Source: Huintestinicola sp.
GTDB taxonomy: Bacteria; Bacillota; Clostridia; Oscillospirales; Ruminococcaceae
DNA length: 64,000 nt
Assembly: GCA_051882495.1 (NCBI GenBank)
Contig: JBJERX010000108.1
Coordinates: forward strand, 16,291 to 80,290
Direction of reading: 5' to 3'
The number at the start of each line of letters is the position of its first letter. Position 1 is the first letter of the stretch. Positions 46,331 through 61,086 of this stretch are shown in pieces. The translations under genes and the position numbers were made by a program. A model generated the notes under the pieces. The model ran no database searches, had not been told where the DNA came from, and saw only the letters and a list, made by a program, of their open reading frames with translations.

Positions 46331-47203
46331 TTGAAAGGCATTATTCTTGCAGGCGGTAAAGGGACACGGCTTTACCCCAATACTATAGTTGTTTCAAAGC
46401 AGCTTCTTCCGATCTATGATAAGCCGCTTATCTATTATCCGTTATCGGTTCTTCTTCTGGCTGATATCAAGGAAATACTTCTTATCTCCACTCCCGAGGA
46501 TACTCCGAATTACAGGAAGCTCCTTGGAGATGGTTCACGGATTGGTATATCTATAGAATACAGGATACAGGAAAAACCACGTGGTCTTGCCGATGCGTTT
46601 ATTATCGGTGCGGATTTTATAGGCAATGACAGTGTATGCCTTGTTCTGGGGGATAATGTTTTCTACGGACAGTGCTTCTCTTCAATGCTCATGGACGCAC
46701 AACAGCAGATATGTAACGGAGGAGCAGCCATTTTTGGATATCCCGTTGCAAATCCCAGAGAGTTTGGTGTTGTGGAATTTGACAAAAACAACAAGGTTAT
46801 TTCCATTGAGGAAAAGCCTGCTGTTCCAAAGTCCAATTATGCTGTCCCGGGATTGTATTTCTATGATAATCACGTTGTTGAGATCGCCAAAAGCATCAAG
46901 CCATCTGCCAGAGGCGAGATAGAGATCACTTCCGTCAATAACTATTATCTTGAACACAATATGATGAACGTTACGCTCATGGGGCGAGGTATGGCATGGC
47001 TGGACACAGGCTCGCCAAAGGGCATGCTCAAGGCTGCGGAATTTGTCCGGACCGTTCAGGATATGCAGGGCTTTTATATTGCCTGCATAGAGGAGATCGC
47101 ATGGCGAAGAAGATTTATTACAACAGAGCAGCTTCACGCTATTGGCGAGGAGCTTAAAATGACCGAGTACGGAAAATATTTATTATCGCTTTCGGAGGAG
47201 TAA
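46331..47203 (+). CDS. rmlA: Glucose-1-phosphate thymidylyltransferase
   Basis: GIILAGGKGTRLYP, SKQLLPIYDKP, QEKPRGLA, SARGEIEITS, WLDTG. Confidence 0.95.
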   Translation: MKGIILAGGKGTRLYPNTIVVSKQLLPIYDKPLIYYPLSVLLLADIKEILLISTPEDTPNYRKLLGDGSRIGISIEYRIQEKPRGLADAFIIGADFIGNDSVCLVLGDNVFYGQCFSSMLMDAQQQICNGGAAIFGYPVANPREFGVVEFDKNNKVISIEEKPAVPKSNYAVPGLYFYDNHVVEIAKSIKPSARGEIEITSVNNYYLEHNMMNVTLMGRGMAWLDTGSPKGMLKAAEFVRTVQDMQGFYIACIEEIAWRRRFITTEQLHAIGEELKMTEYGKYLLSLSEE

Positions 47204-47205
47204 TT

Positions 47206-48225
47206 ATGACTATTATAGTAACAGGCGGAGCAGGCTTTATCGGAGGAAATTTCGTTCACTATATGCTGAAGAAATACCCCGATCACAGGGTGATCTGCGT
47301 TGACTGCCTGACCTATGCGGGAAATCCTGAGACTCTTGCTCCTGTTATGAATAACCCGAGCTTCCGCTTCTGCAAGGTGGATATCACCGACAGAGAGGCT
47401 GTGAACAAGGTGTTTGAAGAGGAAAAGCCTGATATCGTTGTCAATTTTGCTGCGGAAAGCCACGTTGACCGTTCCATTGAGGATCCCGGAGTTTTCCTGA
47501 CTACCAACATCATCGGTACTCAGGTAATGATGGATGCCTGCCGCAAATACGGTATAAAGAGATATCATCAGGTTTCCACCGACGAGGTATACGGCGATCT
47601 TCCTCTTGACCGCCCCGACCTTTTCTTCACCGAGGAAACTCCCATACATACCTCAAGCCCTTACAGTGCATCAAAGGCAAGTGCCGATCTGCTTGTCCTT
47701 GCGTATCACAGGACATACGAACTGCCTGTGACAATTTCACGCTGCTCCAATAACTATGGTCCATATCATTTTCCCGAGAAGCTTATCCCCCTTATGATAG
47801 CAAATGCACTGCATGACAAGCCGCTGCCTGTTTACGGCAAGGGTGAGAATGTGCGTGACTGGCTGTATGTTGAGGACCACTGTAAAGCTATCGACCTAAT
47901 TATCCACAAGGGCAGAGAAGGGGAGGTCTACAATATCGGCGGTCATAACGAGATGAAAAATATTGATATTGTTAAGATGATCGTCAAGGCTCTCGGGAAA
48001 AGCGAGGATCTTATTACCTTTGTGGCTGACAGAAAAGGTCACGATAGGCGTTACGCCATTGACCCCACAAAGATACATACCGAGCTGGGATGGCTCCCCG
48101 AAACAAAATTTGAGGATGGTATTCAGAAAACTATCAGCTGGTATCTTGACAACAGAGAATGGTGGGAGCATATCATTAATGGCGAATATAAGGAATACTA
48201 TAAAAAAATGTATAGCTGCAGGTAA
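47206..48225 (+). CDS. rmlB: dTDP-glucose 4,6-dehydratase
   Basis: VTGGAGFIG, AAESHVDRSI, STDEVYG, YSASKA, NNYGPYHFPEKLIP, GHDRRY. Confidence 0.95.
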   Translation: MTIIVTGGAGFIGGNFVHYMLKKYPDHRVICVDCLTYAGNPETLAPVMNNPSFRFCKVDITDREAVNKVFEEEKPDIVVNFAAESHVDRSIEDPGVFLTTNIIGTQVMMDACRKYGIKRYHQVSTDEVYGDLPLDRPDLFFTEETPIHTSSPYSASKASADLLVLAYHRTYELPVTISRCSNNYGPYHFPEKLIPLMIANALHDKPLPVYGKGENVRDWLYVEDHCKAIDLIIHKGREGEVYNIGGHNEMKNIDIVKMIVKALGKSEDLITFVADRKGHDRRYAIDPTKIHTELGWLPETKFEDGIQKTISWYLDNREWWEHIINGEYKEYYKKMYSCR

Positions 48226-48334: not shown

Positions 48335-48363
48335 TTGACTTTTTTTGCGGATTAGTATATAAT
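48335..48363 (+). promoter_or_regulatory. Sigma-A promoter of the CDP-sugar operon
   Basis: TTGACT-17 bp-TATAAT, ~200 nt upstream of rfbF. Confidence 0.7.
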
Positions 48364-48564: not shown

Positions 48565-49344
48565 ATGAAAGCAGTTCTTTTAGCAGGAGGACTGGGAACA
48601 AGAATTTCCGAGGAATCCCAGTACAAGCCCAAGCCTATGATCGAAATAGGCGGAATGCCTATTCTGTGGCATATAATGAAGGAATATTCCTATTACGGAT
48701 TTAACGATTTTATCATCTGTGCAGGCTATAAGCAGCACGTTATAAAGGAATGGTTCGCAGATTATTTCCTGCATACCTCCGATATAACCTTCGATTTTAC
48801 CGAAGGCAACAAAATGGTTATACATAACATGAAGGCAGAGCCCTGGAGGGTCACAGTGGTGGATACGGGGCTTAATACAATGACAGGCGGCAGAATAAAG
48901 CGTATCCGGCCCTATATCGGCAATGAGACATTTATGATGACATATGGCGACGGCGTATGCGATGTGAATATTACCGAGCTGCTTGAGTTCCATAAGAGCC
49001 ATGGAAAGACTGCAACACTGACCGCTGTAATGCTTGAGCAGCAGAAGGGCGTACTGGATATCGGCGGCGACAATGCTGTCCACTCCTTCAGAGAAAAGGC
49101 TGCGGGAGACGGTGCACCTATTAATGCGGGATATATGGTGCTTGAGCCTGAGATCTTCGATTATATTGACGGTGATGATACCGTATTTGAGAAAAAGCCT
49201 CTGGAAACACTGGCGGCAAAGGGAGAGCTTATGAGCTATATGCACAAGGGCTTCTGGCAGTGCATGGATACAAAGCGTGAAATGGATATGCTTGAAAAGC
49301 TCCTTGCCACAGGACAGGCACCCTGGAAAAAATGGGAGGACTAA
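48565..49344 (+). CDS. rfbF: Glucose-1-phosphate cytidylyltransferase (DdhA)
   Basis: LAGGLGTRISEE..KPKPMIEIG, DTGLNTMTGGRIKR, TYGDG, GFWQCMDT. Confidence 0.95.
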   Translation: MKAVLLAGGLGTRISEESQYKPKPMIEIGGMPILWHIMKEYSYYGFNDFIICAGYKQHVIKEWFADYFLHTSDITFDFTEGNKMVIHNMKAEPWRVTVVDTGLNTMTGGRIKRIRPYIGNETFMMTYGDGVCDVNITELLEFHKSHGKTATLTAVMLEQQKGVLDIGGDNAVHSFREKAAGDGAPINAGYMVLEPEIFDYIDGDDTVFEKKPLETLAAKGELMSYMHKGFWQCMDTKREMDMLEKLLATGQAPWKKWED

Positions 49345-49349
49345 GCTCA

Positions 49350-50420
49350 ATGGACCTTAAAAGCTTTTACAAAGGGAAAAAAGTCCTCATAACGGGGCAT
49401 ACAGGCTTCAAAGGCTCATGGCTTTGCAGGATACTTGCAGGCTTCGGAGCGGAGGTGACAGGCTATTCTCTTACGCCCCCAACATCCCCCTCGCTGTTTG
49501 AGCTTGCGGAGGTTGAAAAGGACATCACTCACATTGTGGGGGATATCAGAGACCTCGACAGCCTTAAAAAAGTATTTGAGGAAAAGCGTCCCGAGATAGT
49601 TCTTCATCTTGCGGCTCAGCCTATTGTAAGGGAGAGCTATAGGAATCCCCTTGATACCTATGAGATAAATGTTATGGGCACAGCCAATATCCTGGAGTGC
49701 GTCCGTCTTACCGACTGCGTCAAGTCCTTTCTGAATGTTACTACCGATAAGGTTTATCTCAATCGTGAGTGGGAATGGGGCTACCGTGAGACAGACGAGC
49801 TGGATGGCTATGACCCTTATTCCAACTCCAAATCCTGTTCCGAGCTGGTGACACATTCATATAAAAACAGCTTTTTCTCCGACGGCAGAACAGCCATTTC
49901 CACCGCCCGTGCGGGAAATGTTATCGGCGGCGGAGATTTTGCTTCTGACAGAATAATCCCGGACTGCATCAGAGCAGCAGAAAAGCATGAGGATATAATC
50001 GTCAGAAATCCTTTTTCAACACGTCCCTATCAGCACGTTCTGGAGCCGCTTTTTGCATATCTGCTCATTGCTGCAAAGCAGTATGAGGATATCTCCTATG
50101 AGGGATATTACAATGTTGGTCCCGATGATAACTGCTGCTTTGAGACAGGCAGGATAGTTGATCTCTTTACTGAAAAATGGGGAGATGGTATCAAGTGGGT
50201 CAATAAGTATGACGGCGGACCTCACGAAGCTAATTTCCTGAAGCTTGACTGTGCTAAGATAAAGACTAAATTCGGCTGGAGACCTACCTGGGAGCTTCCC
50301 GAGACTATGGATAAAATAGTTGAGTGGACAAAGCTTTATATCAGCGGGGCATCTGCCATTGAGCTGAAAGAATGTATGGACAGGCAGATAAATGAATTTA
50401 TGGAACAGATGAATAAATAA
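49350..50420 (+). CDS. rfbG: CDP-glucose 4,6-dehydratase (DdhB)
   Basis: ITGHTGFKGSWL, HLAAQP, TTDKVY, DPYSNSK, RAGNVIGGGD, RPYQHVLEPL, HEANFLKLD. Confidence 0.95.
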   Translation: MDLKSFYKGKKVLITGHTGFKGSWLCRILAGFGAEVTGYSLTPPTSPSLFELAEVEKDITHIVGDIRDLDSLKKVFEEKRPEIVLHLAAQPIVRESYRNPLDTYEINVMGTANILECVRLTDCVKSFLNVTTDKVYLNREWEWGYRETDELDGYDPYSNSKSCSELVTHSYKNSFFSDGRTAISTARAGNVIGGGDFASDRIIPDCIRAAEKHEDIIVRNPFSTRPYQHVLEPLFAYLLIAAKQYEDISYEGYYNVGPDDNCCFETGRIVDLFTEKWGDGIKWVNKYDGGPHEANFLKLDCAKIKTKFGWRPTWELPETMDKIVEWTKLYISGASAIELKECMDRQINEFMEQMNK

Positions 50421-50441
50421 TTTTGAAAGGAATCGTATAAA

Positions 50442-51788
50442 ATGAGCAAGTGGAATACCGAAGCAGAGGCAAGAGATCAGATAAAGGCTCTTGTTGCTGA
50501 TTATTACCATAACTTTAAGGAAAATAAGGCTCCCTTTGAAAAGGGCAACAGAATAAGCTATGCATCAAGAGTATTTGATGAAAAGGAAATGTGTGCACTT
50601 ACCGATGCTATGCTTGATTTTTGGCTTACCACAGGCAGATTTGCCGATGAATTTGAGAAGGAGTTTGCAAAGTGGATAGGCGTAAAGCATGCACATCTTG
50701 TAAACAGCGGTTCTTCCGCAAATCTTATTGCATTTATGGCACTTACCGCACCTGAGCTTGGCGACAGACAGATAAAGAGAGGGGACGAGGTCATTACTGT
50801 AGCCTGCGGCTTCCCCACAACTGTCACACCTATTCTTCAGTACGGGGCAGTGCCTGTTTTCGTTGATGTGACCGTTCCTCAGTATAACATTGATGTGAAC
50901 GCACTTGAAGCGGCTCTCAGCGATAAGACCAAGGCTGTTATGATAGCACATACGCTGGGAAATCCCTTTGACCTTAAGGCTGTAAAGGCATTCTGTGATA
51001 AGCATGGTCTCTGGCTTGTAGAGGATAACTGCGACGCTTTGGGCACACAGTACACCATTGACGGTGAGACACGCTTCACAGGCACATGGGGAGATATAGG
51101 CACATCAAGCTTCTATCCTCCTCACCACATGACTATGGGCGAGGGCGGCTGTGTTTATACCAATGACCCCAAGCTTTCAAGACTTATCCTTTCTTATCGT
51201 GACTGGGGAAGAGACTGCATCTGTCCTTCGGGCAGGGACAATTTCTGTAACCATCGTTTTGACGGACAGTTCGGTGAGCTTCCTCAGGGCTACGACCACA
51301 AGTATGTTTACAGCCATTTCGGATATAATCTTAAGGTTACGGATATGCAGGCAGCTGTAGGCTGCGAGCAGCTGAAAAAGTTCCCTTCATTTATTGAGAG
51401 ACGCCGTCACAACCATGACAGGCTCCTTAAGGCTCTTGAATGCGTAAGCGACAAGCTTATCCTTCCCGTTCCCGCCGAGAACAGCCGTCCTTCCTGGTTT
51501 GGCTTCCTCATTTCCGTTAAGCCCGAAAGCGGCAGGACAAGAAACGAGGTCACAAAATATATTGAATCCCACAATATTCAGACAAGACTGCTTTTCAGCG
51601 GCAACCTTATCAAGCACCCCTGCTTCGACCAGATCAGAGGCACAGACGCTTACAGGATTGCAGGCAGCCTTGAAAATACCGATTTTATTATGAATAACAC
51701 CTTCTGGGTGGGGGTTTATCCCGGTATGACAGATGAGATGATAGATTATATGGCTGAAGTTATTATTGAGGCTGTGAAGTATGAATGA
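50442..51788 (+). CDS. rfbH: CDP-4-keto-6-deoxyglucose 3-dehydrase E1 (DdhC)
   Basis: SFYPPHHMTMGEGG has His in place of the aminotransferase Lys; GRDCICPSGRDNFC..YDH fits the E1 Fe-S ligand pattern. Confidence 0.92.
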   Translation: MSKWNTEAEARDQIKALVADYYHNFKENKAPFEKGNRISYASRVFDEKEMCALTDAMLDFWLTTGRFADEFEKEFAKWIGVKHAHLVNSGSSANLIAFMALTAPELGDRQIKRGDEVITVACGFPTTVTPILQYGAVPVFVDVTVPQYNIDVNALEAALSDKTKAVMIAHTLGNPFDLKAVKAFCDKHGLWLVEDNCDALGTQYTIDGETRFTGTWGDIGTSSFYPPHHMTMGEGGCVYTNDPKLSRLILSYRDWGRDCICPSGRDNFCNHRFDGQFGELPQGYDHKYVYSHFGYNLKVTDMQAAVGCEQLKKFPSFIERRRHNHDRLLKALECVSDKLILPVPAENSRPSWFGFLISVKPESGRTRNEVTKYIESHNIQTRLLFSGNLIKHPCFDQIRGTDAYRIAGSLENTDFIMNNTFWVGVYPGMTDEMIDYMAEVIIEAVKYE

Positions 51789-52767
51789 TACAAAGAAAAC
51801 CGTAAGCGTGGTAATTCCTACCTATAATGAAATAGAAAATGTTCAGGCAGTTGCAGATGCGGTAGTGAAAGAGTTAACGGATAATCTGCCCGAGTATAAC
51901 TATGAGCTGCTGTTTATCGATAACAAGTCCACTGATGGTACAAGAGATGTTATCAGAAAGCTCTGTTCCGAAAATCCGTGTATCAAGGCTATTTTTAATA
52001 TAAAGAATTTTGGACCCGACAATTCTCCGTATTATGGTCTGCTTCAGGCAACGGGTGACTGTGTGATCCCATTTAGCGCTGATTTTCAGGATCCTATTGA
52101 AATGATACACAAAATGGTTCGAGAATGGGAAAAAGGAAATAAGGTAATAACAGCAATAAAGCAAACAAGCCGTGAAAACAAGCTGCTGCGTTTCTTAAGA
52201 ACAATTTATTATAAGTTGATCCGCAAAATATCAAGCACCGAGATAATAGAACATTTTACAGGTTTCGGACTTTATGATCGTTCATTTGTGGATATACTTC
52301 GTTCGATAAATGATCCAGTCCCGTTCTTCAGAGGGGTTGTGGCAGAGTTCAGCGACAGTCGGTTGGAAATGCCCTATGAGCAGCAGAAAAGAAGAGCGGG
52401 GAAGAGTCATATAAGATTTTTCACTCTATACGATATGGTAATGAGGAGCATAACCTCGTATACAAGGATAGGTTTGCGCATAGCTACGCTTATTGGATTC
52501 GGAACTGCAGCAATTTCGCTGCTGGTTGCTGTTATTTACTTTATATATAAGCTTTTAAATTGGGATAGCTTCAATACGGGTATGGCTCCTGTTGTTATTG
52601 GCATATTCTTCTTCAGTTCAATACAGCTTGCATTTCTCGGACTGATGGGAGAATATGTTATGAGTATAAATAACAGGATAATTAACAGACCATTGGTAAT
52701 AGAAGCTGAAAGAATAAATTTTGTCAGCTCCGAAATAACAACCTTATCGGATAAAGACAGCTTATGA
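51781..52767 (+). CDS. GT2 polyprenyl-phosphate glycosyltransferase (GtrB-like)
   Basis: VVIPTYNE, FIDNKSTDGT, SADFQDP, RRAGKS, two C-terminal TMs. Confidence 0.85.
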   Translation: MNDTKKTVSVVIPTYNEIENVQAVADAVVKELTDNLPEYNYELLFIDNKSTDGTRDVIRKLCSENPCIKAIFNIKNFGPDNSPYYGLLQATGDCVIPFSADFQDPIEMIHKMVREWEKGNKVITAIKQTSRENKLLRFLRTIYYKLIRKISSTEIIEHFTGFGLYDRSFVDILRSINDPVPFFRGVVAEFSDSRLEMPYEQQKRRAGKSHIRFFTLYDMVMRSITSYTRIGLRIATLIGFGTAAISLLVAVIYFIYKLLNWDSFNTGMAPVVIGIFFFSSIQLAFLGLMGEYVMSINNRIINRPLVIEAERINFVSSEITTLSDKDSL

Positions 52768-52800
52768 TAATATATGATATGTCACGGAGGCATAAAATTG

Positions 52801-53859
52801 ATGAATGCACAAATAAAGCTGCTTGACTGTACTCTCAGAGATGGCGGATTTGCTCTTGAAGATGCGGAAAAAAATAATATTTCTGCAGGCACATTTTCAG
52901 AGGATGATAGGAATCATATAGCACAGAAGATGACAGAAAGCGGTGCGGAAATAATCGAGCTTGGAGCTATTGAGGTCACTCCTTCCGACAGAAAAGGCTT
53001 TGCCATTTACCCGGATATCGAAAGCATCTCTGCTGTGATGCCTCCGAAAAAGAACAGCAGCCAGCTTTATGCAGGCTTTTTCAGGGGGCCCGACAGACCT
53101 CTTGAGGAAATCCCGCCCTATTCCGAGAATATGCTGGAAGCTGTAAGAGTTTGTCTCAGATATTCCGAGCTGAGGAAATCCCTTGATTACTGTAAGGGAC
53201 TATGCGAAAAAGGATATAAAGTATTTATTCAACCAATGGTCACTGCACGCTATACGGATGAGGAGCTTTCTCTTCTTACCCAAGAGGCAAACTCTATGGG
53301 AGCATATGCTCTGTACTTTGTGGACAGCTACGGCTTTATGACCGAGGAGGATGTGGCGTATTATTTCGGACGATTTGACCGTGAACTTGCCCCCTCAATC
53401 AAAATAGGCTTTCACGCCCACAATAATATGGAAATGGCACTGCCCAATGTATTGTCCTTTATAAAAAATTGCGGAAGCAGAGAAATAATTATTGATTCCT
53501 GTGCCGACGGTATGGGACAAGGCACGGGCAATCTCCAGACCGAGATAATTATGAATTATCTCAACAGGATGTATGGCAAGAACTACTGCCTAGATAAGGT
53601 CTTCGATGTATGTGAGACTATAGGGAAATTTAATTCAAACAGGCTTTGGGGTTACCTGCCTGCAAGATTTATTCCTGCTGTGAATGGCACCGCCTACAAA
53701 TATGCCTTGGCATTAAAAAATAAGTATGGAATGAGCCTCGCAGAAATACACAGCATTCTCAGCAATATCTCTGAAGAGCTGAGATACAGATATACTCCCG
53801 AAAATGCAGAAAAGCTTGTTATTGACAGTGGGATCTATGTAAATAAGGATGGTAAATAA
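52801..53859 (+). CDS. DRE-TIM (HMGL-like) aldolase, 4-hydroxy-2-oxovalerate aldolase-like
   Basis: LLDCTLRDGG, YFVDSYG, GFHAHNN metal site, GMGQGTGN. Confidence 0.8.
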   Translation: MNAQIKLLDCTLRDGGFALEDAEKNNISAGTFSEDDRNHIAQKMTESGAEIIELGAIEVTPSDRKGFAIYPDIESISAVMPPKKNSSQLYAGFFRGPDRPLEEIPPYSENMLEAVRVCLRYSELRKSLDYCKGLCEKGYKVFIQPMVTARYTDEELSLLTQEANSMGAYALYFVDSYGFMTEEDVAYYFGRFDRELAPSIKIGFHAHNNMEMALPNVLSFIKNCGSREIIIDSCADGMGQGTGNLQTEIIMNYLNRMYGKNYCLDKVFDVCETIGKFNSNRLWGYLPARFIPAVNGTAYKYALALKNKYGMSLAEIHSILSNISEELRYRYTPENAEKLVIDSGIYVNKDGK

Positions 53860-53861
53860 GT

Positions 53862-55529
53862 ATGACTGTTGCCGAATATATCGTTAGCGAGATGATAAAA
53901 TGCGGTGTAACAGATGCCTTTGGTATACCGGGTGGAGTTATATTAAAGCTGCTTGCTGCAATGAAAAAAGCAGAACCGGTTCTAACTCCTCATCTGACAT
54001 ATCACGAGCAGACAGCAGGCTTTGCGGCTCTCGGTTATGCTCAGTCAAGCGGAAGGTTAGGTGTTGCTTATTCAACAAGAGGACCTGGTATTACCAATAT
54101 GATTACCTGTATTGCTGAAGCATATCAGGAATCGCTGCCCGTGCTGTTTATCACAGCTCATGGCAGGCGGATGGAGAATAATGTAAGATTTAACGATAAT
54201 CAGGAGCTTGAAGTAGTCAGCTGCATTTCAAAATTCACCAAATTTGCAGCTAATGCCGATACTCCCCACGATGCAGCTAAAATGCTCAAAAAAGCAATTA
54301 ACATTGCGGTGAGTGGAAGAAAGGGACCTGTTTTTCTTGATTTTGCGGCATCCGTTTTCGATAATGAGATTTCTGACGTACCCGAAGAGCATACGGTTTT
54401 GGAGGATAATAGCTCTGTTTCAAAAGCTGCAGATAATGCGACGAAGTTGCTTTCCTCTGCAAAGCGTCCGATATTGCTTATTGGTGACGGACTTAGATAT
54501 TATTCAAAGGACAAACTTAAGAAAATTGCAGAAACACTTAAGATCCCCGTGCTTTCAAGCAGAGGTTCTCAGGATCTTTTGGGAGGCTCGGAGTATTATT
54601 TCGGGTATGTGGGCAGCCACGGTGTAAGATACAGCAACTTTATCCTTTCAAAGGCAGACCTTATCATTGCTGTGGGAAACAGAATGGCATTCCCTCTAAA
54701 CTCGGCAAGCTTTTCTCCTGTTATCAATAATGCAATCATATTCAGAGTGGATATTGATGAAAATGAGCTGAGCCGTCATATTCCTAATGAATATGCTTTT
54801 GCTTGTGACGGCGGAATGTTTCTTGAACTGCTTATGGGGAAGTATCATTTTGAACAAGGCACCGAAGGCTGGCTTGACGTTTGTCGATGCCTTAAAAGAG
54901 AGCTTATTGATGAGGACTGCAATGAAACAGTAAGAAGACTGTCATCATTCATGTCTGCACAGTCTGCCGGAAAGCATTATGTCTGTGATGTTGGAAATAA
55001 TGAATTCCTGTTTTCAAGGGCATATGAGTACATTGGCTCAGAAGATAGTATATGCTGCTCAAAATCCTTCGGTACCTTAGGTTCTTCTATAGGACGTGCT
55101 ATTGGTGTATATTATGCATCCGGCGGAGAAGTTATCTGTGTATGCGGAGATCAGGGCTTTCAGTATAATTCACAGGATCTGCATTATATTTCTCAATGGA
55201 AGCTTCCAATCAGGATAGTTTTACTGAACAATTCCCGCTCGGGAATGATAGCAGATCACGAAAAGAATGTGCTGGGTGATATGAGAATTCATATTGATGA
55301 AGGATCGGGCTACAAAACTCCTGATTTTGCCAAGGTTGCTCAATGCTACGGTATAGAGTATACATCAGATCAGGATACTGCCTGTATGGATAATAATGAA
55401 CCTTTGCTTTATGAGATAAAGTCTGACGAGTGCGGTATCCTTTCACCTTCTTTACCAAAAGGAAATCCCTGTCAGGATATGTTCCCTCTTCTTGACAGAA
55501 ATAAATATGAGTATCTTGATAAACTTTGA
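53862..55529 (+). CDS. Acetolactate-synthase-like ThDP enzyme (YerE-like carboligase)
   Basis: FGIPGG, HEQTAGFAA, RGPGITN, GRKGPVFLD, ThDP motif CGDQG..LLNN; glycan-locus context. Confidence 0.8.
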   Translation: MTVAEYIVSEMIKCGVTDAFGIPGGVILKLLAAMKKAEPVLTPHLTYHEQTAGFAALGYAQSSGRLGVAYSTRGPGITNMITCIAEAYQESLPVLFITAHGRRMENNVRFNDNQELEVVSCISKFTKFAANADTPHDAAKMLKKAINIAVSGRKGPVFLDFAASVFDNEISDVPEEHTVLEDNSSVSKAADNATKLLSSAKRPILLIGDGLRYYSKDKLKKIAETLKIPVLSSRGSQDLLGGSEYYFGYVGSHGVRYSNFILSKADLIIAVGNRMAFPLNSASFSPVINNAIIFRVDIDENELSRHIPNEYAFACDGGMFLELLMGKYHFEQGTEGWLDVCRCLKRELIDEDCNETVRRLSSFMSAQSAGKHYVCDVGNNEFLFSRAYEYIGSEDSICCSKSFGTLGSSIGRAIGVYYASGGEVICVCGDQGFQYNSQDLHYISQWKLPIRIVLLNNSRSGMIADHEKNVLGDMRIHIDEGSGYKTPDFAKVAQCYGIEYTSDQDTACMDNNEPLLYEIKSDECGILSPSLPKGNPCQDMFPLLDRNKYEYLDKL

Positions 55530-55543
55530 TCGGAGGAACGTTT

Positions 55544-57301
55544 ATGTATATCGAAAATATCAGCAGTCCAGCAGATTTGAAAAAGCTATCAATGGATGAA
55601 TGTGAAGCTCTTGCTTCCGAAATTCGTTCAATGCTTATAAAAAAAGCTTCTATTAATGGCGGACATCTTGCTTCTAATCTGGGTATGGTCGAAGCAGCTA
55701 TAGCTCTGCACTATGTATTTGACTCACCTTCCGATAAGATCATATTTGACGTTTCTCACCAGTGCTATACCCATAAGATACTTACCGGCAGAAAAGCTGC
55801 ATTTACTGATGTGGATAAATACTCCTCGGTAAACGGCTATACAAATCCTGATGAAAGTGAGCACGATCTGTTTAAGGTAGGTCATACTGCAACATCCATA
55901 AGCCTTGCCTGTGGTCTTGCAAAGGCAAGAAACATCAGAGGCGGTAAAGAAAGCATTATTGCAGTTATCGGAGATGGTTCGCTAAGCGGAGGAGAAGCTT
56001 TTGAAGGGCTTGATTTCGGCGGTTCTGATATTGAGGGTAATTTTATTGTGCTTTTCAATGACAATCAGATGTCTATTGCGGAAAATCACGGCGGCATCTA
56101 CAATAATCTTGCTCTGCTCAGAAATACTGAGGGAAAAGCTGAAAATAATCTTTTTAAGGCCTTTGGATATGACTATATTTTTGTTAAGGATGGCAACAGT
56201 ATAGTGCAGATTGTGAATGCACTCAGAGAGGCAAAAGAGCTTGACCACCCTGTCGTTGTTCATATATGCACGGTAAAAGGAAAAGGCTATGACTTTGCCG
56301 AAAGCCACAAGGAAAGCACTCATTGGGTAAAACCCTTTAATATTGACAGCGGACTTGAAAAAAATCCTTTTAACGGAGAACGCTACGACAGGCTCATGCG
56401 AGATCACCTAATCGAAAAAATGGAAGAGGATCCCAATGTAGTTACAATGATAGCTGCTGTCCCCGATTCGCTCAATTTTACTGCCGAACACAGAAAAAAG
56501 GCAGGGAAGCAGTTTGTTGATGTAGGTATTGCAGAGGAGCATGCTGTTTCTATGGCGGCTGGTCTTGCAAAGAATGGCTGCAAGCCCGTTTTTGCCACAA
56601 TGTCTACATTCTTCCAGAGGACATATGACCAGATATCTCAGGAACTATGTATCAACAATACGCCTGTCACTCTTCTTGTAATAAATGCTTCTGTTTATTC
56701 AGTAAATGATATTACTCATATTGGAATATTCGATATTCCAATGATGTCAAATATACCGAATCTTGTGTATCTTGCTCCCACAAATAAACAGGAATATCTT
56801 GCCATGACGGACTGGAGTATAGATCAGCAGCAATATCCGGTAGCAATAAGAGCACCCAGAAACGGTGTGTATAATGCAAAGGACGATGTTGACACCGATT
56901 ACAGCTGTCTTAACAAATATAAGGTCGTTACAAAAGGTGAAAAGGTTGCTGTCCTTGCATTAGGAAGCTTTTTCCAGTTGGGCGAGGAGATTTTGAAAAA
57001 AATTTCAGACAGCCTTGGTTTTGTACCTACACTGATAAATCCGAGATATATCACGGGTATTGATAACGAGCTTCTTGAAAGACTGAAAAAGGATCATGAT
57101 GTCGTTATTACTCTGGAGGACGGCGTTCTTGACGGCGGATGGGGTCAGAAGATAGCATCATTCTATGGTAATTCTGAAATGAAGGTACTGAATTATGGAC
57201 TGAAAAAAGAATTCCTCGACAGATATGACTTGAACAAGGTCATGACCGAGAATCGCCTCATACCTGAGCTTATCCTTGAAGATATCAGGGGAATTCTTTG
57301 A
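55544..57301 (+). CDS. DXS-like ThDP carboligase 1 (short type, 585 aa)
   Basis: GGHLASNLG, FDVSHQ, GDGSLSGG..NDN, IAEEHA, TFFQRTYDQ; GGAGG RBS before ATG 55544. Confidence 0.85.
   Translation: MYIENISSPADLKKLSMDECEALASEIRSMLIKKASINGGHLASNLGMVEAAIALHYVFDSPSDKIIFDVSHQCYTHKILTGRKAAFTDVDKYSSVNGYTNPDESEHDLFKVGHTATSISLACGLAKARNIRGGKESIIAVIGDGSLSGGEAFEGLDFGGSDIEGNFIVLFNDNQMSIAENHGGIYNNLALLRNTEGKAENNLFKAFGYDYIFVKDGNSIVQIVNALREAKELDHPVVVHICTVKGKGYDFAESHKESTHWVKPFNIDSGLEKNPFNGERYDRLMRDHLIEKMEEDPNVVTMIAAVPDSLNFTAEHRKKAGKQFVDVGIAEEHAVSMAAGLAKNGCKPVFATMSTFFQRTYDQISQELCINNTPVTLLVINASVYSVNDITHIGIFDIPMMSNIPNLVYLAPTNKQEYLAMTDWSIDQQQYPVAIRAPRNGVYNAKDDVDTDYSCLNKYKVVTKGEKVAVLALGSFFQLGEEILKKISDSLGFVPTLINPRYITGIDNELLERLKKDHDVVITLEDGVLDGGWGQKIASFYGNSEMKVLNYGLKKEFLDRYDLNKVMTENRLIPELILEDIRGIL
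57068..57295 (+). repeat. 228-bp direct repeat, copy 1 (3' end of DXS-like 1)
   Basis: 227 of 228 bases identical to 60137-60364 (offset 3,069 bp), compared by eye. Confidence 0.95.
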
Positions 57302-57337
57302 TTATAATCCTATTGATAAAGGAGTAACTGCATAGAA

Positions 57338-58333
57338 ATGAAAGATATAACTATATTAGTTACAGGTGCCACGGGTTTATTGGGCTATAATCTTGTTAAT
57401 CAATTGATTGACAGGGACGTAAAAGTAATTGCATTGGGAAGAAGCGAAGAAAAGCTTCGTAACTGCTTTAACGAACATATCGGAAAAGATTATTTTTCAT
57501 ATATAGCGTCTGATATTTCCGGGCTAAAGTTACCTATAGATGAACCAATCGATTGTATTTTTCACGCAGCAGGATCGATTGAATTGAAAACAATAGTCGA
57601 GCAACCAATGAATATTGTAAATCCTAACAGTTTAGGCACTATTTCCTGCTTGGAATTCTTAAAAGAACAAGAAATAAGGAGCGGTAAAAGAGGAAGACTC
57701 ATTTACTTCTCCAGTGAAGCAGTATATGGTAAAAGCAGCAATGATAGACGGGTCACAGAGGAGGATACGGAAATATCCGATTCGCTTACAGTCCAAAGAT
57801 CACCCTACTCACATTCCAAAAGGATCGGAGAAGTAATTGTAAACGGCTATCACAAGCAATATAACACCGATTCATTGAGTGTGAGACTTTCCTGGGTATA
57901 TGGAAATGCAAAAATCAGACCCAAGCAAGCACTGTTTGATTTTATTCAAACCGCTCTTGAGGGAAATGATATAATAATCAGAAACGCCAACACTCCCAGA
58001 CGAGATAATATCTGCATGAAGGATGCTATGGAAGCATTGATCTGTATAGCTCAGAAGGGAACGGCAGGGGAGGCTTATAACATTTCTTCAGGCGGAGACT
58101 GCGGCAATTTCGCGTCGGCTGCCGAGATCGCAGAGATCGTTGCTGATATTGTAAACAGCAAACAGTATTCACCCAAGCCTGTACATGTGCTTTACGAAAA
58201 TGAATTATCCAAAAGAGAAGGCGGGATTATTATGGACAATTCCAAGCTTAAAATGCTGGGATGGGACATAACAACTGGACTTCGTGATGGAATTGAAAAG
58301 TTAATAGATGAGGTAAGAAACAATGTATATTGA
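57338..58333 (+). CDS. Extended SDR (NAD(P)-dependent NDP-sugar reductase/epimerase)
   Basis: VTGATGLLG, SSEAVYG, YSHSK catalytic YxxxK, RLSWVYG. Confidence 0.85.
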   Translation: MKDITILVTGATGLLGYNLVNQLIDRDVKVIALGRSEEKLRNCFNEHIGKDYFSYIASDISGLKLPIDEPIDCIFHAAGSIELKTIVEQPMNIVNPNSLGTISCLEFLKEQEIRSGKRGRLIYFSSEAVYGKSSNDRRVTEEDTEISDSLTVQRSPYSHSKRIGEVIVNGYHKQYNTDSLSVRLSWVYGNAKIRPKQALFDFIQTALEGNDIIIRNANTPRRDNICMKDAMEALICIAQKGTAGEAYNISSGGDCGNFASAAEIAEIVADIVNSKQYSPKPVHVLYENELSKREGGIIMDNSKLKMLGWDITTGLRDGIEKLIDEVRNNVY

Positions 58334-60110
58334 AAAGATCAACAGTCCCGCGGACTTAAAAAAATTATCAATTGATGAGTGTAAGGTATTAGCAGATGAG
58401 ATGAGGCAGACACTGCTAAATAAACTAAGCGTTACAGGCGGACATCTGGCACCGAATCTTGGTGTCGTTGAGGCAGTGATAGCATATCATTATGTTTTCG
58501 ATTCTCCCTATGATAAAATCGTTTTCGATGTATCCCATCAATGCTATCCTCATAAGATGCTCACAGGAAGAATGGAAGCTTATACAAAGCCTGAGAAATA
58601 TTCATCTGTAACAGGATTTACTGAAATTACTGAAAGCGAACACGACTTTTTTACTGTAGGTCATACTTCAACCTCAATCAGTCTCGCCAGCGGTATGGCT
58701 AAGGCACGAGATCTGAAGGGTGACAAAGAGAATATAATTGCATTTATCGGAGACGGCTCATTAGGCGGTGGTGAAGCATTTGAGGGACTTGATTATGTGG
58801 CCTCTGAAATAAATAGCAATTTTATTATCATATTAAATGATAATGGAATTTCCATAGCTGAAAATGTAGGTGGGCTGTATAAGAACTTAAAAGAACTCCG
58901 CGATACAAACGGTACTTCTCAAAACAATATATTTAAGGCTCTGGGACTTGATTATAGGTTTGTAGAAAATGGAAATGATATTCCTTCTTTAGTAGAAACA
59001 TTGCAGGAAGTTAAGGATATTGATCATCCGGTAGTAGTGCATATTTGTACAGTTAAGGGTTATGGATATACATATTCGGAAAGTAACCCTGAGATGACTC
59101 ATTGTCTTAATAAACCTTTCGATATTGAAAAGGGTCCTGATTTTACTCCATTTAAGTTTGTTGAAGGAAAGAATGAAAGATATGATTATATAATCAGAGA
59201 ACACCTTATTGACCGAATGAAAAAAGATCCTCTTATTACCACAATTATGGCATCAACAATGTACTGCCTTTCTTTTACGAAAGATAAGCGGGAAGAAGCC
59301 GGAAATCAGTTTGTTGATGTAGGGGCGGTAGAGGAACATGGTATTGCGATGACTGCCGGCGTAGCACGAAATGGAGGCAAACCTGTATTCGTAACTGCAT
59401 CTACTTTCTATATGCGAACATATGACCAGATATCTCAGGAATTATGTATAAATAAATGCCCTGCTACATTAATTGTAGTCAATGCTTCCGTGTATGCAGT
59501 TGATGATGTTACACATACTGAAATATTTGATATCCCTATGATGTCAAATATACCGAATCTGGTATATCTTGCTCCCACAAACAAGCAGGAATATTTAGCA
59601 ATGTTGGATTGGAGTATAGATCAGACAGAGTATCCTGTTGCAATTCGTCAGCCTAGAAATGGTGTTTTCTATGCTAAGGGTGAAGTGGATAAGGATTATA
59701 GCGATCTAAATAAGTATAAGATTGAAATATGCGGCAGCAAGGTTGCAATTATTGCCCTGGGAGAATTCTATCAGTTGGGAGAATCAGTTGTCGATTTATT
59801 AGAGAAAAGAACAGGAATAAAAGCTACACTAATAAATCCCAGATATATAACCGGAATTGACGAAGCACTGCTGAGAAGTCTTCCTGAAACGCATAGTTTG
59901 ATAGTAACACTTGAAAGCGGCTCACTGAACGGAGGATTTGGAGAAAAAATTGCATCTTTCTATGGACCTGATAACAGAGTAAAAGTTCTTAACAGAGGTT
60001 TGAAAAAGGAATTCCTTGATACGGTTCATATGAGTACTGCGAAATTACTGGAAGATTTGCGCCTGACAGACGAGTTACTATGTGATGATATTGAAAGCTG
60101 TCTGAATTGA
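58323..60110 (+). CDS. DXS-like ThDP carboligase 2 (595 aa)
   Basis: GGHLAPNLG, DVSHQ, GDGSLGGG..NDN, AVEEHG, TFYMRTYDQ; clear paralog of DXS-like 1. Confidence 0.85.
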   Translation: MYIEKINSPADLKKLSIDECKVLADEMRQTLLNKLSVTGGHLAPNLGVVEAVIAYHYVFDSPYDKIVFDVSHQCYPHKMLTGRMEAYTKPEKYSSVTGFTEITESEHDFFTVGHTSTSISLASGMAKARDLKGDKENIIAFIGDGSLGGGEAFEGLDYVASEINSNFIIILNDNGISIAENVGGLYKNLKELRDTNGTSQNNIFKALGLDYRFVENGNDIPSLVETLQEVKDIDHPVVVHICTVKGYGYTYSESNPEMTHCLNKPFDIEKGPDFTPFKFVEGKNERYDYIIREHLIDRMKKDPLITTIMASTMYCLSFTKDKREEAGNQFVDVGAVEEHGIAMTAGVARNGGKPVFVTASTFYMRTYDQISQELCINKCPATLIVVNASVYAVDDVTHTEIFDIPMMSNIPNLVYLAPTNKQEYLAMLDWSIDQTEYPVAIRQPRNGVFYAKGEVDKDYSDLNKYKIEICGSKVAIIALGEFYQLGESVVDLLEKRTGIKATLINPRYITGIDEALLRSLPETHSLIVTLESGSLNGGFGEKIASFYGPDNRVKVLNRGLKKEFLDTVHMSTAKLLEDLRLTDELLCDDIESCLN

Positions 60111-60388
60111 GTCAAATCTTTTCAGAGTATGTTAATGAGCTTCTTGAAAGACTGAAAAAGGATCATGATATCGTTATTACTCTGGAGGACGGCGTTCTTG
60201 ACGGCGGATGGGGTCAGAAGATAGCATCATTCTATGGTAATTCTGAAATGAAGGTACTGAATTATGGACTGAAAAAAGAATTCCTCGACAGATATGACTT
60301 GAACAAGGTCATGACCGAGAATCGCCTCATACCTGAGCTTATCCTTGAAGATATCAGGGGAATTTTTAACAATTGGCACACTGTATGA
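60107..60388 (+). pseudogene. Duplicated C-terminal fragment of DXS-like 1
   Basis: Encodes ELLERLKKDHD..EDIRGI from the 228-bp repeat; no catalytic domains. Confidence 0.85.
60137..60364 (+). repeat. 228-bp direct repeat, copy 2
   Basis: One mismatch versus 57068-57295 (g57101 / a60170). Confidence 0.95.
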
Positions 60389-60397
60389 TGCGGCAAT

Positions 60398-60571
60398 GCT
60401 CCCGTACTTATAGGAGTATTCCTTCTCGGCGGAATTCAGCTTTTCTTTATCGGACTGCTGGGCGAATACATAATGTCAATAAACACCAGAGTCATGAACA
60501 GACCTTTGGTTATTGAAGAAAAAAGACTGAATTTTGATGATCCTCATGATGAAAAAGAGGACAGAGAATAA
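60398..60571 (+). pseudogene. 3' remnant of a second GtrB-like GT2 gene, absent from the ORF track
   Basis: APVLIGVFLLGGIQLFFIGLLGEYIMSINTRVMNRPLVIEEKRLNF..* parallels APVVIGIFFFSSIQLAFLGLMGEYVMSINNRIINRPLVIEAERINF of 51781-52767; in-frame stop at 60386-60388, no start. Confidence 0.85.
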
Positions 60572-60609
60572 TTTCGGTCATAATATTTCCGTATGAGGGA
60601 GCTGAACCA

Positions 60610-61086
60610 ATGCAATCAATAAAGCAGTTTTTAAAATTCGGCATAGTCGGATTATCCAATACTCTTATTTCGCAGATCATATACATGATAGCAGTCTCCC
60701 TTGGTGCTCACTATCTTGCAGCCAGCGTGATCGCTTTCATTATCAGTGTGCTGAATGCATTTTTCTGGCAGAATAAATTTGTTTTCAAGGAGGAAGAGGA
60801 CAAGGAGAAAAGAGTATGGTGGAAGGTTCTTCTGAAAACCTATGCAGCTTACGCCTTTACGGGTCTGCTGCTGAATAATCTTCTCCTGATAATGTGGATA
60901 GACCTTATCAGGATCGAAAGCTTCACTCCTGCACTCACTGATCTTGTGAACAGCTTCGGTATCAATATAAGCAATCATGATCTGGCTGTTGATATAGCTC
61001 CTCTTCTTAATATTGTTGTGAATGTGCCCATTAACTTTGTGATTAATAAATTCTGGGCTTACAGGCAAAAAAAGGTTGCATCTTAA
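60610..61086 (+). CDS. GtrA-family lipid-linked sugar translocase
   Basis: QFLKFGIVGLSNTLI, NAFFWQNKFVF, INFVINKFWAY; four TMs. Confidence 0.9.
   Translation: MQSIKQFLKFGIVGLSNTLISQIIYMIAVSLGAHYLAASVIAFIISVLNAFFWQNKFVFKEEEDKEKRVWWKVLLKTYAAYAFTGLLLNNLLLIMWIDLIRIESFTPALTDLVNSFGINISNHDLAVDIAPLLNIVVNVPINFVINKFWAYRQKKVAS

Follow-up and report, generated by a model that had tools for sequence, protein, structure and literature searches.

A divergent DRE-TIM aldolase-like family with alternating partners in CDP-sugar operons: candidate enzymes for carbon branching of nucleotide sugars

The stretch of DNA considered here, called the window, comprises 64,000 nucleotides of a Huintestinicola sp. genome (2.93 Mb in 148 contigs; assembly GCA_051882495.1, contig JBJERX010000108.1, forward-strand positions 16,291 to 80,290), and all coordinates below are numbered within it. 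It carries a tightly packed, same-strand operon in which rfbF, rfbG and rfbH are followed by genes for a polyprenyl-phosphate glycosyltransferase of the GT2 family, a DRE-TIM/HMGL-like protein referred to as ALD, a thiamine diphosphate (ThDP) enzyme, a DXS-like protein, a short-chain dehydrogenase/reductase (SDR), a second DXS-like protein and a GtrA-like protein. The reading favoured here, tentatively and at somewhat less than an even chance, has ALD join pyruvate to a CDP-keto-sugar at its C4 ketone, after which the sugar-bound 2-oxoacid thus formed is either reduced or decarboxylated and extended. The features of the locus are the following.

48335..48363, + strand: near-consensus sigma-70-type promoter, TTGACT-17-TATAAT (11/12), a consensus match only
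48565..49344, + strand: rfbF, glucose-1-phosphate cytidylyltransferase (TIGR02623, 380.5 bits against a cut-off of 300)
49332..50420, + strand: rfbG, CDP-glucose 4,6-dehydratase, giving CDP-4-keto-6-deoxy-D-glucose (TIGR02622, 442 bits against 278)
50442..51788, + strand: rfbH (E1), CDP-4-keto-6-deoxyglucose 3-dehydrase (NF011936, 716.7 bits against 423)
51781..52767, + strand: GT2 polyprenyl-phosphate glycosyltransferase, PgfS/ArnC-like (PF00535, E 9e-26)
52801..53859, + strand: ALD, divergent DRE-TIM/HMGL-like, pyruvate-aldolase-like protein of 352 aa (PF00682, E 6.9e-18)
53862..55529, + strand: ThDP enzyme of 555 aa, acetolactate synthase (ALS)/YerE-like, with a GDQG motif (TPP_enzyme_N/M/C domains)
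55544..57301, + strand: DXS-like 1, INAS in place of DRAG (reading frame opens at TTG 55526, likely start ATG 55544)
57061..57298: direct repeat, left copy, 238 bp, 98% identical to the right copy
57338..58333, + strand: extended SDR of the nucleotide-sugar type (PF01370, E 5.7e-37)
58323..60110, + strand: DXS-like 2, VNAS in place of DRAG
60107..60388, + strand: duplicated 3' end of DXS-like 1, a 93-aa fragment
60130..60367: direct repeat, right copy, 238 bp, 98% identical to the left copy
60610..61086, + strand: small membrane protein of the GtrA type, putative flippase acting with the GT2 (homologues in related loci L017 and L021 match PF04138)

The ALD open reading frame runs from 52774 to 53859, and ATG 52801, which a GGAGG precedes by 9 nt, is probably its start codon. 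Counted from there, the DCTLRDGG signature occupies residues 9-16 and the HAHNN motif residues 205-209. The TAA stop codon (53857-53859) is followed by 'gt' and then by the ATG of the ThDP enzyme (53862); this 2-bp spacing and both motifs had been correctly described in an earlier account made from the letters of the window (the sequence-only reading), and the two genes are possibly translationally coupled. Given the Pfam and NCBIfam E-values and the 3,486 ALD homologues found at E <= 0.001 in a protein collection search, the identification of ALD and the ThDP enzyme is not due to chance.

The sequence-only reading took ALD for a DRE-TIM aldolase condensing pyruvate with an aldehyde. At the level of fold and superfamily this designation stands. 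The AlphaFold2 model of ALD (pLDDT 90.8) displays a DRE-TIM barrel with a C-terminal helical domain, its top Foldseek matches are 4lrs, 3dxi, 8ih7, 4jn6 and 1nvm (E about 1e-14 to 1e-13), and 3dxi is also the best sequence match in the PDB (family profile, E 3e-23). Residues R13, D14, H205 and H207 align with R17, D18, H200 and H202 of DmpG and are invariant in the family, so that the metal ligands (Asp, His-x-His) and the enolate-stabilising Arg are kept; at least 77 positions are invariant. Membership of the HOA-aldolase family itself did not hold up, as ALD scores 85.9 bits against a cut-off of 286 with TIGR03217 and 100.6 against 229 with NF006049, values so far under the cut-offs that they place it outside the characterised 4-hydroxy-2-oxovalerate aldolases.

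With DmpG, BphI and HsaF (1nvm, 4lrs, 4jn6, 8ih7), to which it is about 17-20% identical, ALD has in common the barrel followed by a helical domain, the metal site made up of Asp/His/His, and the Arg. In alignments to 1nvm, 8ih7 and 4lrs, F17 of ALD, four residues past the Arg, takes the position of DmpG H21 and BphI H20, and across 39 ALD orthologues this position is F, L or Q and never H. In DmpG, His21 serves as base for the hydroxyl that derives from the aldehyde. The aldehyde pocket of DmpG includes a hydrophobic stretch, LLLPGIG, which is replaced in ALD by a stretch in which P97 and D98 are invariant and R95 is found in 27 of the 39 orthologues. An invariant W-G-Y285 is a candidate counterpart of DmpG Y291 and BphI Y290, but the sequence alignments end before that region. 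Nor was a gene for supplying an aldehyde found: the operon encodes no acylating aldehyde dehydrogenase of the DmpF/BphJ/ErwJ kind, and no ErwJ/DmpF-type gene occurs among the annotated reading frames beside ALD in related loci. The gene between rfbG and ALD was considered as an aldehyde supplier and rejected, being a variable glycosyltransferase.

A scan of species-representative genomes yielded 80 loci, 41 of which carry an ALD 45-60% identical to that of the window. These loci come from rumen and gut Lachnospiraceae, Oscillospiraceae, Bacteroidales, Elusimicrobia, Spirochaetes and others, and they contain rfbF in 37 cases and rfbG in 35. Carriers include Acetobacterium tundrae DSM 9173 (L009), Ruminococcus flavefaciens (L020) and Butyrivibrio sp. 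WCD2001 and AC2005. Two partner contexts are observed. In 28 of the 41 loci ALD is accompanied by a ThDP enzyme, the gene of which lies at most 250 bp after ALD in 24; an extended SDR is present in 25 of these 28 loci and a DXS-like gene in 12. In 11 other loci a 2-oxoacid reductase is encoded within 5 kb of ALD and there is no ThDP gene. ThDP enzyme and 2-oxoacid reductase never occur together (0/41), and in two loci the contig ends just past ALD. The functional link between aldolase and ThDP enzyme proposed in the sequence-only reading is well supported by gene proximity, though not the mechanism as it was written.

The reductases of the 11 loci belong to two unrelated families. Pfam assigns a PF02826 D-2-hydroxyacid dehydrogenase to L004, L006, L011, L013, L016, L020, L033 and L038 and a PF02615 Ldh_2 enzyme to L002 and L032, and the reductase of L041 is a weaker match, by BLAST only. 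SDR and DXS-like genes are absent from these 11 loci, save for a weak SDR-like gene nearby in L011. Gene-by-gene annotation of L013, L020, L033 and L038 gives only rfbF, rfbG, the reductase, ALD, an Acyl_transf_3 protein, glycosyltransferases and a flippase, and no other enzyme able to consume the 4-keto group. The Acyl_transf_3 gene adjoins ALD in all nine reductase loci with annotated neighbours.

It might be supposed that the ALDs of the reductase loci form a separate paralogue with another function. The maximum-likelihood tree and the residue comparison reject this idea: ALDs from both kinds of locus intermingle, the well-supported branches require four or more changes of partner, and no alignment column separates one group from the other. 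For example, Bacteroidales locus L032 (Ldh_2) is sister to L026 (ThDP enzyme and SDR) in the ALD tree, and both have the same rfbF-rfbG-ALD upstream.

Since the partners of ALD are either a 2-oxoacid reductase or a ThDP enzyme of the decarboxylase type, its product is very probably a pyruvate-derived 2-oxoacid. The type of chemistry foreseen earlier, formation of a 4-hydroxy-2-oxoacid by pyruvate aldol addition, is therefore probably right, while the small-aldehyde acceptor is not supported. The reductase loci hold no other enzyme for the product of RfbG and, having no ThDP enzyme, would have no means of joining a free 4-hydroxy-2-oxoacid, or the hydroxy acid made from it, to a sugar; the keto sugar itself is thereby indicated as the acceptor, with its C4 ketone as the most economical choice. 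The DCTLRDGG[F/L/Q] DRE-TIM family may then be an unrecognised class of nucleotide-sugar C-branching enzymes, with the C4 ketone of CDP-4-keto-6-deoxy(or 3,6-dideoxy)glucose as electrophile, a proposal to which we give slightly under half of our confidence. Ketone electrophiles are normal in the DRE-TIM superfamily, as in isopropylmalate, citramalate and homocitrate synthases. Aldol addition to a ketone is unfavourable and would need an irreversible pull, which would explain the obligatory pairing of ALD with a consuming enzyme.

The pathway would begin with RfbF, RfbG and RfbH, identified by curated models above cut-off, which would supply CDP-4-keto-3,6-dideoxy-D-glucose; all steps past this keto-sugar are inferred. 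ALD, in a metal-dependent reaction, would form the enolate of pyruvate and direct it to the C4 ketone and not to a free aldehyde, so that the sugar-bound product, a 4-hydroxy-2-oxoacid, would be a tertiary alcohol bearing a -CH2-CO-COOH branch. Where the partner is a D-2-hydroxyacid or Ldh_2 dehydrogenase, this enzyme would convert the branch into a lactate-like one, the predicted product being an acidic 4-C-(2-carboxy-2-hydroxyethyl)-6-deoxyhexose. In the window and the 28 ThDP loci, the side chain would lose CO2 through the action of the GDQ-motif ThDP enzyme and become an aldehyde or acyloin, the DXS-like paralogues could add a pyruvate-derived C2 unit to the sugar-borne aldehyde, and the SDR of the nucleotide-sugar type would reduce the resulting ketone. 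The gene order rfbF-rfbG-ALD-ThDP-SDR(-DXS) seen in Bacteroidales, Elusimicrobia and Spirochaetes matches this order of reactions. The window operon would thus make a CDP-activated C4-branched 3,6-dideoxyhexose, to be transferred by the GT2 and GtrA-like proteins to a polyprenyl phosphate carrier and from there to a surface glycan of the host. The latter is a Ruminococcus-like bacterium of the Oscillospiraceae, with an AhcY 88% identical to that of a 'Ruminococcus sp.' metagenome-assembled genome. As rfbH is absent from most ThDP-containing related loci, these would branch a 6-deoxy and not a 3,6-dideoxy sugar.

The skeleton expected from such a pyruvate aldol addition to a 4-keto-6-deoxy sugar is found in nature. 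Shewanellose, 4-C-(3'-carboxamide-2',2'-dihydroxypropyl)-6-deoxy-GalNAc, from Shewanella putrefaciens A6, has what corresponds to C3 of pyruvate joined to C4 of the sugar, the branch being -CH2-C(OH)2-CONH2 (PMC4052302). Unlike the predicted sugar of the window, it is a 2-acetamido sugar and comes from a gammaproteobacterium, and the likeness is one of sugar structure. No paper on its biosynthesis was found in the literature search, and the sugar-acceptor reaction, if true, is possibly the missing biosynthetic logic of shewanellose-type sugars.

The ThDP enzyme possesses the three domains TPP_enzyme_N, M and C (PF02776, PF00205 and PF02775; E 9e-30, 8e-23 and 4e-21) and has a broad, sub-threshold similarity to acetolactate synthases. 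Among solved structures it scores 173 bits with 5ahk, 166 with 8rph and 155 with E. coli AHAS I (6lpi), a small margin, and the Glu of its HEQ motif, which activates the cofactor, aligns with the Glu of all three. Of these, 5ahk is PpYerE and 8rph is JanthE, the latter recognised by its CDG motif; the YerE-like placement is made by these PDB relatives. Like YerE/YerF of Yersinia pseudotuberculosis (yersiniose A), PpYerE and JanthE, the enzyme combines the three-domain architecture with a CDP-keto-sugar context, provided in the window by rfbF, rfbG and rfbH upstream. YerE differs in using pyruvate alone, with no need of an aldolase. In the window enzyme (55145-55160, residues 429-432) and in all 28 of the ALD-partnered orthologues, GDQG replaces the GDG of the ThDP motif and the NN is kept, whereas the ThDP enzymes partnered with a longer ALD family described below carry GDGS, and JanthE carries CDG. 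As judged from these motifs, GDQG marks a distinct and previously undescribed ThDP-enzyme subclass, comparable to that defined by the CDG motif of JanthE.

The two DXS-like proteins, about 62% identical to each other, fall below the TIGR00204 cut-off of 465.95 bits (460.4 and 428.8), and the insert specific to DXS is shorter in them by some 45 residues. The true DXS of the genome, encoded on contig C88 (616 bits), has a DRAG motif, the arginine of which binds the phosphate of glyceraldehyde 3-phosphate; the cluster copies have INAS and VNAS at this place. The presence of this true DXS led to rejection of the idea that the cluster genes serve as the cell's DXS of the MEP pathway. Compared with the SDR encoded after the ThDP enzyme in related loci, the window SDR shows 38-47% identity; with the one encoded ahead of the DXSb homologue of L021 it shows 60%.

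The main rival of the sugar-acceptor reading is a published scheme. In the erwiniose pathway of Pectobacterium atrosepticum, 4-hydroxy-2-oxopentanoate is produced by ErwI, an aldolase of the BphI kind, together with ErwJ, an acetaldehyde dehydrogenase. The ThDP enzyme ErwE does not accept pyruvate and passes this hydroxy-oxoacid on to the keto sugar, as shown with a ketone analogue, and ErwF reduces the product to erwiniose (PMC9306805). The same logic is attributed to MMAR_2331/2332 (caryophyllose), to MygI/MyGE (gastriose) and to a Rhodopseudomonas palustris cluster, and the whole was put forward by Steitz et al. in 2022 as a 'unifying scheme', proposed and partly demonstrated (PMC9306805). 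The mechanism that the sequence-only reading offered as a new inference had thus already been published. Applied to the window, it would have ALD form a free 4-hydroxy-2-oxoacid from pyruvate and a small free aldehyde of general metabolism, the ThDP enzyme decarboxylate this acid and transfer the resulting acyl-anion equivalent to C4 of CDP-4-keto-3,6-dideoxyglucose and the SDR reduce the 1'-ketone to an erwiniose- or caryophyllose-like sugar.

In favour of this scheme, it is experimentally demonstrated for ErwE, MMAR_2332 and MyGE, each of which has an adjacent aldolase gene. As in the erwiniose pathway, the window combines CDP-4-keto-3,6-dideoxyglucose genes with genes for a DRE-TIM protein of the aldolase type, a ThDP enzyme of the ALS family and a reductase using NAD(P)H, so that all four types of component are present, and the predicted product is likewise a C4-branched deoxy sugar. 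The adjacency and possible translational coupling of the ALD and ThDP genes, the YerE-like relatives of the latter and the finding that ALD comes nearest in structure to pyruvate aldolases which act on aldehydes all agree with it. It nevertheless leaves unexplained the 11 loci in which rfbF, rfbG, ALD and a reductase are found without a ThDP enzyme or a sugar ketoreductase; ALDs of the two contexts are interspersed in the tree and identical in their conserved residues. ErwI is a bona fide BphI-like HOA aldolase working with ErwJ, whereas ALD lies below the family cut-offs, with Phe in place of the catalytic His and without a dehydrogenase or other ErwJ/DmpF-type aldehyde supplier among its annotated neighbours. 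The window further departs from the erwiniose pathway by the GDQ motif of its ThDP enzyme and by its DXS-like paralogues, frequent genes for which the scheme provides no role because DXS-type products are ketones and not aldehydes. On balance we consider it rather unlikely to hold for ALD, while a serious rival and clearly the strongest of the alternatives, and an erwiniose- or caryophyllose-type product, as the sequence-only reading expected, is not supported. The two readings predict different sugars, with a methylene directly on C4 if the sugar is the acceptor and C4-CH(OH)-CH2- under the published scheme.

Several points weigh against addition to the sugar ketone. The best solved relatives of its ThDP partner are the YerE-like PpYerE (5ahk) and JanthE (8rph), YerE-like enzymes take the keto sugar as acceptor and not within the donor, and the ThDP-SDR pair of the window resembles YerE-YerF. 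Among the reductase loci, L011 has in its vicinity the additional, weak SDR-like gene already mentioned, genes for 4-ketoreductases might lie at other places of the genomes concerned, and the 2-hydroxyacid dehydrogenase could act before ALD, supplying another 2-oxoacid donor. A HAD phosphatase often adjoins the genes of the longer sister family, an arrangement more in keeping with a free phosphorylated aldehyde than with a sugar as acceptor. We know of no natural sugar with the side chain predicted after ThDP processing. Finally, in the experimentally supported precedent the aldolase works with free aldehydes, and it is the ThDP enzyme that attaches the chain to the sugar (PMC9306805).

It is also conceivable, but improbable, that ALD is not an aldolase and acts instead as a Claisen-type enzyme (acetyl-CoA giving the keto sugar a carboxymethyl branch), as a decarboxylase or lyase, or as a non-catalytic partner of the ThDP enzyme. 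The DRE-TIM superfamily includes Claisen condensing enzymes, lyases and carboxyltransferases, which reach similar E-values in the fold search, and the catalytic His of the aldolase branch is missing from ALD. The best matches of ALD in both sequence and structure are nonetheless pyruvate aldolases, its metal ligands and at least 77 invariant positions argue for a working enzyme, and the alternation of two unrelated 2-oxoacid reductase families with a ThDP enzyme of the 2-oxoacid-decarboxylase type suggests a pyruvate-derived 2-oxoacid. A reverse order, in which the ThDP enzyme places a pyruvate-derived acetyl group on C4 as YerE does and ALD then extends the branch by adding the metal-chelated alpha-hydroxy methyl ketone, as nucleophile, to an aldehyde, would give the same 3-hydroxyacyl branch as the published scheme, would explain the divergence of ALD from free-acid aldolases and was named by Steitz et al., who excluded it for ErwE only (PMC9306805), but it is highly improbable, for the ThDP-less reductase loci offer ALD no acetyl branch, 2-oxoacid-consuming partners imply a 2-oxoacid as its product, and ALD keeps the pyruvate-binding Arg and the metal site.

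The sequence-only reading had suggested looking for the same aldolase pair in the Pectobacterium and Mycobacterium marinum loci. The published loci turn out to use other aldolases: a BphI-type enzyme with its dehydrogenase in the former and a member of the aldolase/citrate-lyase family in the latter. The caryophyllose locus of M. marinum resembles the window in placing an aldolase (MMAR_2331), a ThDP carboligase (MMAR_2332) and a glycosyltransferase (MMAR_2333) by deoxy-keto-sugar genes, and its knock-outs reportedly lose the branched sugar. It differs in its actinobacterial host, in its glycan, a lipooligosaccharide, and in MMAR_2331, whose reported family has no relation in fold to DRE-TIM. 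By sequence, the window ALD matches neither of the two published aldolase types. The locus is best filed as a related but distinct variant of the acyl-branched-sugar clusters, in which a new reaction of ALD is credible but unproven.

Branched higher sugars, which are antigenic, occur rarely and are difficult to detect by chemical means. To our knowledge, the combination of an aldolase with a YerE-like enzyme, in the scheme of 2022, is the only known route to long C4 branches. The ALD module is widespread among rumen and gut Lachnospiraceae, Oscillospiraceae, Bacteroidales, Elusimicrobia and Spirochaetes, groups from which no descriptions of sugars with long C4 branches were found. The literature search likewise returned nothing relevant on 3dxi, on DXS-like polysaccharide genes, on nucleotide-sugar aldolases or on clusters combining CDP-glucose genes, an aldolase and acetolactate synthase. 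If the sugar-acceptor reading is true, ALD would perform a new enzyme reaction, the aldol addition to a non-activated sugar ketone with formation of a chiral tertiary alcohol, of interest to both glycobiology and biocatalysis. It would open a modular route to hidden branched higher sugars, either acidic and lactate-like or decarboxylated and extended by GDQ ThDP and DXS-like enzymes, and would make surface sugars of gut commensals predictable from sequence. For the toolbox of ThDP carboligases, two new groups of candidates present themselves: the ThDP enzymes with the GDQ motif and the DXS-like enzymes devoid of the arginine.

A sister family of ALD is found in loci L043-L080. These proteins, of about 540 aa and about 30% identical, carry DCTLRDGGY and are of the 3dxi/BVU_2661 type, with Y at the position equivalent to F17 in the family as in 3dxi. 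The latter is the N-terminal domain of a putative aldolase of Bacteroides vulgatus, and shares with ALD the signature DCTLRDGG[Y/F/L]; unlike ALD, it belongs to this longer family, which is linked to a ThDP enzyme of about 600 aa with a canonical GDG, a HAD phosphatase or FabG-like reductase, an extended SDR and rfbF/G/H (for example L080:9998-15341 and L072:5341-11321). For the C-terminal alpha/beta domain of the long ALDs, of about 200 aa, a fold search of the model gave TIM-barrel matches only. In another variation, an Acetatifactor metagenome-assembled genome (L039:10001-15573) encodes two ALDs, one directly after rfbG (55% identical) and one directly before the ThDP gene (48%).

Regarding the remainder of the operon, the promoter-like site at 48335..48363 lies in the 340-bp gap before rfbF and is likely the operon start. 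Across this gap, directly upstream, stand rmlA and rmlB of the dTDP-glucose pathway (46331-48225), and neither rmlC nor rmlD was seen within the window. No E3 reductase of the AscD/RfbI type, needed by RfbH, is encoded in the operon (48565-61086, the genome beyond it not having been searched). The GT2 protein gives full-length matches, below cut-off, with NF047588 and NF007986, and its PgfS/ArnC-like character, together with the GtrA-like protein, would indicate delivery of the sugar by polyprenyl phosphate, the decoration being added outside the cytoplasm. The SDR and DXS-like 2 genes form a cassette bracketed by the 238-bp direct repeat, which accounts for the DXS 3' fragment at 60107..60388, and this arrangement is consistent with a recent insertion of the cassette, or its possible excision, by homologous recombination.

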